From sequence record PZ452612.1: a stretch of 64,000 nucleotides of DNA; one strand, written 5' to 3'. The translations under genes were made by a program, and so were the position numbers. Under the pieces are notes generated by a model, which saw only the letters and a program-made list of their open reading frames with translations, was not told where the DNA came from and made no database searches. This DNA comes from a phage. The first letter of the stretch is position 1, and each line of letters opens with the position of its first letter. Of the stretch, positions 18,417-36,811 are shown piece by piece.

Positions 18417-18887
18417 TTAATCATGTTTCCACACCCCATTGGTATTCGACCAAAGTCGCTGATTATCTGATCCTCGCCACAGTTTTTTGGTCGGAAGATT
18501 TTTCTCATACTTCCCATCAATAATAACATCAACATATTTAAGCATTTCTAGTTGTTTAATATCTTCAAACTTATATCCTGTCCACAACCAAATGCTTTTA
18601 TTGGGATAAATATTTTTTACTGTTTGAACAATGCAATGAACAACATCTCTATTATCAGGATAGAGAGGGTCGCCTCCGGTTATAGTCAATCCTTCTATAT
18701 AATCATTATTCAAACATTCAATTAATTGTTCTAGTGTCTCTCCAGTGAATGGAGCACCATTTCTAGCGTTCCATGTTGATTTATTATAACACCCTTCACA
18801 TTTATGCAAACAACCTGTAACGAAAAGAACGACCCTGCAACCAGGGCCATTCACAAAATCGCAAGGATAAAATCTATCATAATTCAT
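18417..18887 (-). CDS. nrdG: Anaerobic ribonucleotide reductase activating protein NrdG (radical SAM)
   Basis: CLHKCEGCYN is a CX3CX2C radical-SAM motif; 156 aa; immediately downstream of nrdD. Confidence 0.9.
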   Translation of the reverse strand: MNYDRFYPCDFVNGPGCRVVLFVTGCLHKCEGCYNKSTWNARNGAPFTGETLEQLIECLNNDYIEGLTITGGDPLYPDNRDVVHCIVQTVKNIYPNKSIWLWTGYKFEDIKQLEMLKYVDVIIDGKYEKNLPTKKLWRGSDNQRLWSNTNGVWKHD

Positions 18888-20701
18888 TGGTGTTTAACCC
18901 TATGCATGATTTCTTTATTTTTACCGAGATTAAATCCGCGTTCGTTCGGATTTCCCAAATAACCGCATGTTCTTCTTATGGTGTTCATCTTTTTAGGATC
19001 AGTTTCTCCGCAAACTGAACAAACAAATCCGTTTTCAGTAGGAGTCATTTCATGGGTACTTCCACATGTAAAACATTTATCTACTGGCATATTAACACCA
19101 AAATAATCTAAATGTTGTGCAGCATAATCCCAGACAGCCTCAAGTCCCTTTAAATTGTTTTTCATATCTGGAAGTTCAACATAAGAAATGTGACCACCTG
19201 TCGCAATGAAATGATATGGCGCTTCACGAGAAATCTTTTCAAACGGAGTAATATTTTCTTCTACTGAAACATGGAAACTATTAGTGTACCAGCCTTTATC
19301 TGTAACATCTTTTACACTTCCATATTTTTCTGTGTCTAGTTTACAGAAACGATAACAAAGGTTTTCAGCAGGTGTAGAATACAAGCTAAAAGCAAACCCA
19401 GTTCTTTCAGTCCATTGTTTAAGAAGAGCATTCATTTTAGTTAAAATTTCTTGTCCAATATCACGTCCGACAAGAATATTCAATTCGTGGATACCAATGT
19501 ATCCTAAAGACACTGAACTTCTACCGTTTTTAAATAACTCAATTATGTCGTCATCAGGTTTAAGACGAACCCCGAATGCACCTTCTTGGTAAAGAATAGG
19601 AGCAACAGTCGCTTTAACTCCTTTTAAGGAACTAATTCTACACATCAAGGCTTCAAAACACAGATCCATACGTTCATTGAATAATTCAACAAATTTCTGT
19701 TCATTGAACTGTGTTCCAATATAAGAATCTAATGCGATACGAGGAAGATTCAGTGTTACAACACCGAGATTATTACGTCCATCAAGAATTTCATTACCAG
19801 TCGAATCTTTCCATACGCTCAAGAAACTACGGCAACCCATTGGAGAAACTGGAACTGAAGAACCAGTAATAGCTTTATTATTCTTAGCTGAAATAATATC
19901 AGGATACATTCTTTTGCTTGCGCACTCTAGAGCAAGCTGCTTAATATCATAGTTCGGATCGTCTTTATAAAGATTAACACCTTCTTCAACGAACATAACA
20001 AGCTTAGGGAAAATAGGAGTTATTCCATCACGACCAAGACCTTTAATGCGGTTTTTAAGAATTGCCTTCTGAATCATTCGTTCAGTCCAATCGGCCCCCG
20101 TACCAAATGTAATTGTTACAAAAGGCGTTTGTCCGTTTGAACTAAAGAGAGTATTTACTTCATATTCATAAGCTTGGAACGCGTCATAGACATCTTTTTC
20201 TGTTTTGGATTGAGCATAATTCAACGCATCAGCGATTTGCCATTTTTCCGCATCTTCAACATGTTTAGCGTATGTGCGTTTAACATAAGGAGAAAGAACT
20301 TTATCGACATTTGCAAATGTAGTTCCGCCATACTGATGTGAAGCAACTTGTGCAGTAATTTGTGCCATAATTGCAGTAGCAACACCAATCGATTTAGGCG
20401 TTTCAATTTGAGCATTGCCTAATTTAAATCCGTTCTCAAGCATCCCCTTTAAATCGACTAAACAACAATTAGTAAACGGAAGAGCAGGAGAATAATCAAT
20501 ATCATGCATGTGGATAATTCCACTTTCATGCGCATTCATAATAAAAGACGGGACCATATTTTTGGCAATGTGCTTAGACACAATACCAGCCATAAGGTCC
20601 CGTTGAGTTGGAAAAACACGAGAATCTTTATTAGCATTCTCGTTTAAAAGGTCTTTATTAGTTTTATGAATTAATCCTTCAATTTCTTTTTCAATTTTCA
20701 T
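18884..20701 (-). CDS. nrdD: Anaerobic ribonucleoside-triphosphate reductase NrdD
   Basis: 605 aa; C-terminal glycyl-radical motif RRTCGYLG and a C-terminal Cys cluster. Confidence 0.95.
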   Translation of the reverse strand: MKIEKEIEGLIHKTNKDLLNENANKDSRVFPTQRDLMAGIVSKHIAKNMVPSFIMNAHESGIIHMHDIDYSPALPFTNCCLVDLKGMLENGFKLGNAQIETPKSIGVATAIMAQITAQVASHQYGGTTFANVDKVLSPYVKRTYAKHVEDAEKWQIADALNYAQSKTEKDVYDAFQAYEYEVNTLFSSNGQTPFVTITFGTGADWTERMIQKAILKNRIKGLGRDGITPIFPKLVMFVEEGVNLYKDDPNYDIKQLALECASKRMYPDIISAKNNKAITGSSVPVSPMGCRSFLSVWKDSTGNEILDGRNNLGVVTLNLPRIALDSYIGTQFNEQKFVELFNERMDLCFEALMCRISSLKGVKATVAPILYQEGAFGVRLKPDDDIIELFKNGRSSVSLGYIGIHELNILVGRDIGQEILTKMNALLKQWTERTGFAFSLYSTPAENLCYRFCKLDTEKYGSVKDVTDKGWYTNSFHVSVEENITPFEKISREAPYHFIATGGHISYVELPDMKNNLKGLEAVWDYAAQHLDYFGVNMPVDKCFTCGSTHEMTPTENGFVCSVCGETDPKKMNTIRRTCGYLGNPNERGFNLGKNKEIMHRVKHQ

Positions 20702-34003: not shown

Positions 34004-34313
34004 CTAGACGGTCCACCATAGAATTGCATGCTGCCTTATCTTTAGGTTCCGCCACCGAGCATTCTAATATTTGCCATTTTTTATAGTATCTTTTAATTAA
34101 GGTAGACGCCTTGAACCTACTAGACGCCCCATCTTTTTCTCCGTCTTTATACGCGTATAACAATTTTTGTGAAAAATCTACTTTACACTCTTGACTTTTA
34201 CCACAATAATCAGACGCCGTTCTGTTTGTATACTCCGTTACATCAGTATATGTAGTATTAGCAAGAGCGTTAAATGAAACCAAGCTAACTATTAAAGCCA
34301 ACATTTTGGTCAT
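33966..34313 (-). CDS. Secreted protein (signal peptide, four Cys)
   Basis: MTKMLALIVSLVSFNALA signal-like N-terminus; 115 aa. Confidence 0.45.
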   Translation of the reverse strand: MTKMLALIVSLVSFNALANTTYTDVTEYTNRTASDYCGKSQECKVDFSQKLLYAYKDGEKDGASSRFKASTLIKRYYKKWQILECSVAEPKDKAACNSMVDRLVDSYTRGLAASD

Positions 34314-35376: not shown

Positions 35377-35717
35377 TACTCTTTGAAAGGAATTAACTTT
35401 TTAACTGCTTTAGATACTTCGTCACGAACCTGGTGGAAGTTCTTGAGCTGTTCAAGGCGTTGTTCGTAATACGCAATCTCATCTTCTTCAAGACAATCGT
35501 CAGCGTCTTCTTTCAGATATGCCTTGTACTCATTAAAGAGGGCCCATAGGCGGTTCTCAAAGTCATCAAGGCTTTGAATTTTCTTGTGCTTCGGAACAAG
35601 GCCAAAAGGATTGCTTTCAGTTATGCGTCGAGATGCTTCATAATGAGTTCCAAAGCCTGATAGGATTTGAGCCATTAGTATTTTTCCTCTGGTTGAAATA
35701 CCGCACGACAAGCCCAC
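35376..35717 (-). CDS. Hypothetical protein
   Basis: 113 aa ORF. Confidence 0.4.
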
Positions 35718-35920
35718 ATACTAGCTTCCTTTAGGCGTTCTTTAGCACAGTTCAATTGGGACAAAGCTGTCAAAGCTTCAGGAGTATTCGCAGACAACGC
35801 TTCTTCCGCCAAGGCATCGAAAATAAGCCCTAATCGAACTTCTGCATCTTTAATAGCGTTCACTTTACCGATTTTATCATCGGTATGCGGCTTGTAGCCT
35901 TTGATGTCTTCAATCGACAT
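35675..35920 (-). CDS. Hypothetical protein
   Basis: Track ORF 35675..36088 trimmed to the internal Met [18 protein letters not shown]... Confidence 0.35.
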
Positions 35921-36134
35921 AAGGAATTTCCTCATCGGTGGCAAGGTCATATTCGACCAATTGGATAGGCTCATTAATACCATATCCACGTACAGTGATA
36001 TCGGTTGTCGGATATTTTCCAGTAATATCACCCATTCTAAATGCTTCAGTGAATGATTGCTCGCCTGAGCAACTAAACCAGGCGGCAAAACATTTTAAAA
36101 CATCTTCAGACCCTTCTATAATCAATTTAGCCAT
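35910..36134 (-). CDS. Hypothetical acidic protein
   Basis: 74 aa ORF. Confidence 0.4.
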   Translation of the reverse strand: MAKLIIEGSEDVLKCFAAWFSCSGEQSFTEAFRMGDITGKYPTTDITVRGYGINEPIQLVEYDLATDEEIPYVD

Positions 36135-36496
36135 TATAGACTCTCAGTAAAGGTACGAGCGATAACGTCGCGCTGCTGTTCCGGGGTCAGAGAGTTAAAG
36201 CGAACTGCATAACCGGATACACGGATGGTCAGCTGTGGATATTTTTCCGGATGCTTAACTGCATCTTCCAGAGTTTCGCGACGCAGAACGTTAACGTTCA
36301 GATGTTGACCACCTTCAATTTTAACTTTAGGTTGATGTTCAATTTCAATTTCACGGGCATTCAAACCGTAGAAAATTTCCGGGTCTACAATAGCGTCTTC
36401 TTTAAAAGTCTTAGAGACGATAATCCGGGCTTGAGTACCGTCTTCAAAATAAATAGTGCCTTTATGTGCACCTTCAAGAATTTGATATGCTTTCAT
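36134..36496 (-). CDS. grcA: Autonomous glycyl radical cofactor GrcA/YfiD-like
   Basis: C-terminal ...[62 protein letters not shown] carries the RVSGY glycyl-radical motif and appears near-identical to enterobacterial GrcA as recalled. Confidence 0.85.
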
Positions 36497-36502
36497 ATAA
36501 CC

Positions 36503-36811
36503 TCAATTAGAAAATAAATTTATCCAAGTTTTTTCTTTAATCAAAAATGGGTCAGAACTAAACGCCATTAAACTTTGAGTGATTAATCCCTTAAATGGCC
36601 CATCAATAAATTCCATTTTGAAATGCGGAATACTAGTCATCAACCGTGCGTTAGGAGCAGTACAAAGAACCTGCTGCCCTGCGAACGGACCTTTAGTCAA
36701 ACGGTATCGTTTAGGTTTAAAATGGTAAATCTCGTAATTTTCTACAAGAGCCCTTTTATTGCATACTGGGCTGTTATAACAATATTCAAAAACTTCAATA
36801 GTGGTCATCAT
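36503..36811 (-). CDS. Hypothetical protein
   Basis: 102 aa ORF. Confidence 0.4.
   Translation of the reverse strand: MMTTIEVFEYCYNSPVCNKRALVENYEIYHFKPKRYRLTKGPFAGQQVLCTAPNARLMTSIPHFKMEFIDGPFKGLITQSLMAFSSDPFLIKEKTWINLFSN

Follow-up and report, generated by a model that had tools for sequence, protein, structure and literature searches.

The locus examined here raises two questions: what is done by a phage protein that ends in a host-like glycyl radical domain, and how that domain came to be there. It lies in a stretch of 64,000 nt of phage DNA (sequence record PZ452612.1), referred to below as the window. An earlier note on this DNA had described the ORF as a homologue of the autonomous glycyl radical cofactor of enterobacteria (GrcA/YfiD), relatively recently captured from a host, that could repair either oxygen-cleaved pyruvate formate-lyase (PFL) or the phage's own glycyl radical ribonucleotide reductase, NrdD. 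The ORF runs on the minus strand from ATG to TAA, encodes 120 amino acids, and has exactly the coordinates given at that time.

36134..36496, minus strand: vs.6 / grcA coding sequence, 120 amino acids plus TAA, autonomous glycyl radical cofactor of Mosigvirus
36501..36504, minus strand: Shine-Dalgarno sequence GAGG, 4 nt before the ATG, as read from the sequence

The ORF is sandwiched between two small minus-strand ORFs, and its GAGG overlaps the stop codon of the upstream vs.7, showing that vs.6 is tightly packed in a leftward operon. A scan around the gene returned promoter-like and terminator-like sites in numbers not above those of shuffled controls.

The source phage is an RB69-like Mosigvirus and the ORF is vs.6, the name that the gene bears in RB69. 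All 363 nt of it are 100% identical to Escherichia coli O157 typing phages 3, 6, and 13 (Mosigvirus, RB69-like), in whose records the ORF is already annotated as “grcA, autonomous glycyl radical cofactor”; the RefSeq entry of this very phage likewise calls the gene grcA, and an exact-sequence look-up of the 120-aa protein returned “Autonomous glycyl radical cofactor, Mosigvirus.” The protein matched the PHROG 1209 profile over its full length (residues 1-120 over a 121-position profile; E = 9e-63) and, with its regB-denV position, has the features of the phage vs.6 family. It also matched Pfam Gly_radical (E = 2e-18) and, having its own start, stop, and Shine-Dalgarno sequence, is a small (~14-kDa) stand-alone protein, as GrcA is. 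The NCBIfam GrcA equivalog model TIGR04365 aligned with residues 18-120 at 159.1 bits, below its cut-off of 170, because the N-terminal half is divergent. Pfam Gly_radical, the YfiD structure (6OWR), and the alignment with E. coli GrcA agree in identifying a GrcA/YfiD homologue, as had been proposed. The naming of the family elsewhere is uneven: PHROGs v4 labels this full-length phage GrcA family (PHROG 1209) “unknown function” despite the characterization of the T4 protein in 2001, and GenBank phage records often call the gene “hypothetical protein,” “pyruvate formate-lyase,” “acetyltransferase-like,” or even “ribonucleotide reductase subunit.” With the gene known, and its biochemical role established, as early as 2001, and with grcA already annotated in this phage, the earlier observation is correct but not new, and the finding as first stated adds nothing; the modest added value of the present analysis is evolutionary.

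For comparison with the host protein, the reference was the grcA gene of a completely sequenced E. coli (L001:1347-1730). Residues 61-120 of the phage protein are identical to YfiD residues 68-127 at 60 of 60 positions, so that the near-identity of the C-terminal ~60 residues, RVSGYAVRF included, to enterobacterial GrcA, which had been proposed earlier, was borne out by alignment. Alignments to YfiD and to PFL residues 696-759 place the radical motif and its glycine as follows.

36197..36223, minus strand: RVSGYAVRF motif, residues 92-100
36212..36214, minus strand: codon of the radical Gly95, which aligns with YfiD Gly102 and PFL Gly734

The nuclear magnetic resonance structure of E. coli YfiD (6OWR) was matched with E = 2e-42 and PFL (1H16) residues 696-759 with E = 3e-26, and the domain is of the PFL type, with RVSGY and the glycine both present. 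In the phage copies from which the domain was extracted, the 13-residue radical motif was kept in 81 of 81; the radical glycine has therefore never been lost among these, and its loss in related phages, which the earlier note had named as evidence against its reading, was not seen. T4 vs.6 (L163:2058-2420) has His (CAT) at residue 73, where E. coli GrcA and the seven other phage copies compared site by site have Arg; this R73H change falls within the otherwise host-identical domain of the protein that has been characterized biochemically.

Residues 61-127 of YfiD are structured and have the fold of PFL 693-759, and residues 1-60 are disordered and important for the binding of cleaved PFL (cPFL) and for radical installation (PMC8683613). 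As the work of Wagner et al. (2001; pmid 11444864) is summarized in two reviews (PMC8683613, PMC13450708), the PFL-activating enzyme (PFL-AE) puts a radical on YfiD or on T4 Y06I, and oxygen-cleaved PFL is restored; according to the same reviews, spare parts have been validated for PFL only. The repair of oxygen-cleaved PFL, one of the two roles suggested earlier, has thus been shown in biochemical experiments with the T4 orthologue (93% identical) and by orthology would hold for the protein studied here. We conclude that Mosigvirus vs.6 is very probably the orthologue of T4 vs.6, a 14-kDa “spare part” for PFL, with a radical domain that has been overwritten by E. coli DNA.

By this mechanism, which published work has shown for the T4 and E. 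coli proteins, oxygen cleaves active PFL at its radical Gly734, and the small protein, whose C-terminal domain has the fold of PFL 693-759, would bind the cleaved enzyme. The host activase PflA (PFL-AE) would then install the radical on the glycine of the small protein (Gly95 here), and the domain would supply the missing glycyl radical loop, whereupon the conversion of pyruvate to acetyl-CoA and formate would resume. The presumed benefit to the phage is that fermentative ATP and acetyl-CoA would be kept up after the shut-off of host gene expression in low-oxygen habitats, such as the gut, and that formate, the reductant of class III ribonucleotide reductases, would stay supplied to a phage that encodes such a reductase (NrdD/NrdG). 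The searchable literature yielded no phage-biology or evolutionary study of phage grcA, including any on its benefit in vivo or on a conversion tract, which is not proof that none exists.

The same architecture could also suit a modulator or sink that titrates host PflA or occupies PFL and thereby redirects host carbon flux, in that a host-identical recognition domain is joined to a phage-specific N-terminal half, the region important for the binding and activation of YfiD. However, the T4 orthologue, in the published work as reviewed, reconstitutes activity and does not inhibit it, and a functional replacement would have to match the host spare part exactly, as the phage domain does. We consider such a role very unlikely and retain the repair of PFL as the probable function.

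The statement that the phage also encodes NrdD held, and its activase NrdG was found in the same 64,000-nt stretch.

18884..20701, minus strand: NrdD, class III (glycyl radical, formate-dependent) ribonucleotide reductase; Pfam NRDD 1e-170, Gly_radical 1e-25; motif RRTCGYLG
18417..18887, minus strand: NrdG, radical-SAM activase of NrdD; PHROG 626, anaerobic ribonucleotide reductase small subunit, 4e-72

The presence of nrdD and nrdG in the same stretch as vs.6 would fit a second role, in which the small protein, activated by NrdG, serves as a spare radical domain for the phage NrdD and replaces the C-terminal piece lost on oxygen cleavage. T5 likewise has both a GrcA-like gene (T5.056) and nrdD, the grcA-like gene of three jumbo-phage contigs (L107, L108, and L124) lies within an nrdD-nrdG cluster, and similar spare parts can be conceived for further glycyl radical enzymes (PMC8683613). 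Nevertheless, BLASTP at E = 10 detected no similarity between the 120-aa protein and the phage's own NrdD, and the protein carries RVSGY, not the RRTCGY beside a Zn-ribbon that marks the radical domain of NrdD. Its structured domain is that of the PFL-specific host GrcA (60/60 identical residues, with 48/60 identical to PFL), even the nrdD-adjacent copies keep the PFL-type sequence, and the rescue of PFL is the sole spare-part activity to have been validated. The clustering of grcA with nrdD, moreover, has equally good explanations in formate supply or in membership of a common low-oxygen regulon. The suggestion that the protein repairs the phage NrdD therefore found no support, and we judge it highly improbable.

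A link between GrcA and NrdD through formate is plausible. Formate is the reductant of most characterized class III ribonucleotide reductases (Mulliez et al. 1995, as cited in PMC4493059), and PFL is the formate source of the cell, so that a live PFL would feed the anaerobic deoxynucleoside triphosphate synthesis of the phage, besides ATP.

The jumbo-phage clusters are arranged in two ways. L107:1-2781 and L108:1-2657 (IMG/VR jumbo contigs of 357 and 346 kb) contain, in this order, nrdD, small ORFs, the grcA-like gene, an ORF of the DUF4326/unknown type, and the gene for an nrdG-type radical-SAM activase, and in L124:1-1722 (IMG/VR jumbo contig of 235 kb) the order is nrdD, nrdG, grcA-like. 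The NrdD motif of L107 and L108 is RRVSGYL instead of the usual RRxCGY.

As to the origin of the gene, its sequence falls into three parts.

36317..36496, minus strand: N-terminal half, codons 1-60, phage-lineage type, matching the disordered region of YfiD
36146..36316, minus strand: E. coli-derived conversion tract, codons 61-117, structured radical domain, 168/171 nt identical to K-12 grcA
36137..36145, minus strand: last three codons GAG AGT CTA (E-S-L), phage-type, 3' edge of the host-like tract

The N-terminal half is 88% identical in amino acids to that of T4 and 50-67% identical to those of RB16, RB43, KP15, CC31, and a 357-kb jumbo phage, and has 27-28% amino acid identity to any host GrcA. 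It aligns with YfiD residues 1-60 at 28% identity (shared positions Q-I, D, AR.IV.K, ED, RE, and P.V), which confirms the divergence of the N terminus from E. coli GrcA (28% over residues 1-60) that had been noticed before, and its GC content (0.36) and GC3 (0.25) are typical of the phage.

In codons 61-117, by comparison, DNA identity to E. coli grcA is 98.2%, and it reaches 100% in some T4-type phages. The last 61 codons, stop codon included, show six differences from E. coli grcA in 183 nt, all of them synonymous, and the best match to these 183 nt in 5426 complete E. coli genomes was 96.7%. Identity to E. coli grcA over this segment is 96.7% for this phage and 97.8% for T4, and the E. coli segment itself is 98.4% identical to that of another Escherichia species, 92.3% to Citrobacter, 84.2% to Klebsiella, and 83.6% to Salmonella; from these values, the phage segment nests within the genus Escherichia. 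At the 5' side, 6 of 12 nt differ from E. coli in the four codons directly preceding the C-terminal segment, and further 5' the similarity collapses. At the 3' side, the last three codons differ from the E. coli codons GAA AGC CTG and equal those of RB16 and KP15.

Near-identity of this kind might be sought, without recombination, in strong purifying selection and codon bias acting on an anciently acquired gene. Selection on the radical domain is indeed extreme, RB16 and Cronobacter phage leN differing from the E. coli domain by 28 synonymous and 0 nonsynonymous codon differences, and the codon usage of grcA is biased. However, RB16, RB43, KP15, and CC31 encode these 60 amino acids, with few or no changes, in DNA just 79-84% identical to that of E. 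coli, showing that purifying selection alone does not give near-identity; in RB16, leN, and KP15, the same amino acid sequence goes with 80-84% DNA identity, so that synonymous sites are not fixed by selection. Further arguments against selection alone are the sharp edges of the tract at codons 60/61 and 117/118, the T4-type tracts that are 100% identical to E. coli alleles, and the bimodal distribution of identities over 752 phage records described below. This explanation is already contradicted, and we give it next to no chance. The 60-codon domains of RB16 (L096) and leN (L166) encode exactly the amino acids of E. coli GrcA, which is unusually strict purifying selection for a phage accessory gene.

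The replacement of the domain by recombination was addressed with an informative-site test in which E. coli and one phage relative were taken as “parents” and the N-terminal half was compared with the C-terminal 183 nt by Fisher's test. With KP15 as the phage parent, the ratio of E. coli to phage matches was 24:47 in the N-terminal half and 30:6 in the C-terminal 183 nt (p = 1e-6), and with CC31 it was 9:58 and 33:2, respectively (p = 3e-16); the same test on T4 gave p values down to 7e-20. All six differences from E. coli (6/6), among them the three that lie inside the tract of codons 61-117, carry the KP15 base, and 4/6 carry the RB16 base; the chance of six such base matches is ~1e-3 by a rough back-of-envelope estimate. 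These leftover phage-type bases delimit the E. coli-like tract to codons 61-117, with phage-type sequence on both sides. On the evidence of the alignments, vs.6 is a mosaic, in which a host-derived gene conversion patch lies within an old resident phage gene.

Homologous recombination in E. coli-infecting Tequatrovirus/Mosigvirus has replaced codons 61-117 by E. coli grcA DNA; the N-terminal half and the three terminal codons, both of phage type, stayed in place. The host was the donor and the phage the recipient, since the relationships of E. coli grcA are those of the host phylogeny and the phage copies that were not converted are distant from it. The reverse transfer, into E. coli, was considered and rejected: E. 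coli grcA is 98.4% identical to that of another Escherichia species and 92.3% identical to that of Citrobacter and just 80-84% identical to the unconverted phage copies.

The locus speaks to the age of the gene. Its regB-denV position is common to T4, CC31, PG7, and two more distant T4-like contigs (L114 and L116), from which it follows that the resident gene is old and that just its core was overwritten. It had been suggested that the gene was captured recently from a host, and if this applied to the whole gene, E. coli would have been the donor and the N terminus would have diverged fast since. In favor of such a history, the C-terminal DNA is closer to E. coli grcA (96.7% identity) than to that of any other genus sampled. 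It is nevertheless contradicted by the N-terminal half, which is 28% identical to that of E. coli versus 50-67% identical to those of T4-like phages of other genera and of the jumbo phage; by the presence of the gene in the same regB-denV block of CC31, PG7, and more distant T4-like phages; by the phage-type last three codons; and by the combination of ~70% amino acid replacement in one half with 2% synonymous change in the other, which is incompatible with a single history. The chance that the whole gene was captured recently is very slight. What stood of the earlier claim is that codons 61-117 are E. coli-like in DNA; the N-terminal half, the last three codons, and the locus are old phage sequence, and the mosaic described above is the reading that we retain.

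The surroundings of vs.6 show some peculiarities of their own. Between positions 34310 and 38284, vs.6 is the gene most conserved relative to T4 (L163), at 92% nucleotide identity, with vs.1, regB, vs.5, vs.7, vs.8, and denV at 70-87%, and the N-terminal half, which is not converted, is still 89% identical to that of T4. This high conservation, N-terminal half included, may reflect exchange of the gene between phages. Downstream of vs.6, at 35675..36134 on the minus strand, lie two overlapping minus-strand ORFs of unknown function; the ORF that is conserved beside vs.6 in RB16, RB43, KP15, CC31, and PG7 is 35675..36088, not the 74-aa ORF 35910..36134. CC31 and PG7 have a homologue of the 74-aa ORF upstream of vs.6, pointing to a small local rearrangement among genera.

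How widespread is the host-like tract? A search of all phage records with the K-12 tract gave 752 matches, 252 of which were at least 99% identical (one listed record being 100% identical over all 171 nt) and 391 were 95-99% identical. A mere 2 records fell at 90-95%, a further 104 at 80-90% (the examples listed being Klebsiella phages such as JD18), and 3 at 60-80%. The distribution is clearly bimodal, with 643 of the 752 records at 95% identity or more. The tract of one T4-type contig, L086, was 100% identical to grcA of six E. coli strains, H126-H131, among the matches listed, and was at least 99% identical in 5156 of 5432 matching records. Mosigvirus-type copies retain different numbers of phage-type bases within the tract, namely, three in this phage, one in L083, and none in L084; in the eight sequences read in detail, this variation is a hint of repeated conversion or of shuffling between phages.

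A second tract may have a different donor. In Klebsiella phage vB_Kpn_AM_K3 (Jiaodavirus, L165:301-663) and in L109, the DNA of the radical domain has a GC content of 0.56, far above the phage background, encodes the Klebsiella/Salmonella-type LLDAVEH and not LEDAVKH, and reaches 88% identity to the closest enterobacterial grcA sampled. This domain may be a second, independent host-derived tract.

One could extend these observations to a more general scheme, in which the vs.6 radical domain of E. coli-infecting Tequatrovirus and Mosigvirus phages has been overwritten repeatedly and not once, within the ~170 nt of high homology, by the grcA of the current Escherichia host, perhaps with a Klebsiella-type donor in Jiaodavirus, and in which formate for NrdD is the selective value. 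We put this forward tentatively, with the chances somewhat against it. If it were true, recurrent overwriting would keep the spare part an exact match to the PFL and PflA surfaces of the host while the phage-specific N-terminal half is preserved, and the supply of formate to NrdD would account for the co-occurrence of GrcA-like genes with nrdD and for their position inside the nrdD-nrdG clusters of jumbo phages.

Sequences resembling GrcA are not confined to relatives of this phage. A sensitive DNA search found them in 1510 phage records, including T4-like phages of Escherichia, Shigella, Klebsiella, Enterobacter, Citrobacter, Cronobacter, Yersinia, and Aeromonas, as well as T5-like phages, a Vibrio phage, and Erwinia jumbo phages. 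Some records encountered in the analysis call for caution. L033, “Vagococcus sp. WN89Y,” has an enterobacterial-type grcA whose product is 91% identical to that of E. coli and is probably a case of contamination or mislabelling, and a grcA of chromosomal type is present in L025, a “Klebsiella sp. WOUb02 plasmid” of 276 kb. Among IMG/VR viral contigs, L111 has a grcA with a host-type N terminus and 91% DNA identity to Yersinia, and L152-L161 have full-length or partial pflB; these contigs are probably prophage-flanking host DNA or misclassified.

Taken together, these results make vs.6 a clean and statistically strong case in which the functional core of a gene of a virulent phage has been replaced by host DNA via homologous recombination, in contrast to its relatives in phages of other genera, which keep the same amino acids by selection alone. 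The gene would be a convenient natural marker both for host-to-T4 recombination and for the recent host history of T4-like phages. It also carries a caution, namely, that a phage gene may be highly identical to a host gene without having been captured recently as a whole.

Among known systems, the closest is T4 vs.6 (GRCA_BPT4, UniProt P13316, formerly Y06I), which also has 120 amino acids, is 93% identical in amino acids and 92% in DNA, is likewise located between vs.5 and vs.7 of the regB-denV block, and shows the same mosaic of a phage-type N terminus and an E. coli-like radical domain. The two proteins differ at eight residues, seven in the N-terminal half plus R73H in T4, and the tract of this phage keeps three phage-ancestral synonymous bases that T4 does not have. 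E. coli GrcA/YfiD (P68066; 6OWR) is of the same size class and homologous over its full length, with the same radical glycine, the same PFL-mimicking domain, and a C-terminal segment identical to that of the phage gene at 177/183 nt, but the phage N-terminal half is 7 residues shorter and just 28% identical, and vs.6 sits in a phage early-type operon and not beside ung, as E. coli grcA does. The radical domain of PflB (residues 700-759) is identical at 48/60 positions and has the same 13-residue loop, with Gly95 on Gly734, but there it belongs to a 760-aa enzyme, whereas the phage protein is a stand-alone protein of 14 kDa. Finally, the GrcA-like genes of other phages (PHROG 1209: RB16, RB43, KP15, CC31/PG7, T5 T5.056, RaK2-like jumbo phages, and Aeromonas phages) share the architecture of vs.6, with the same phage-type N terminus (...VSKT) and the invariant radical motif, but the DNA of their radical domain is just 65-85% identical to E. 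coli grcA, indicating that there the domain has not been overwritten by E. coli DNA.
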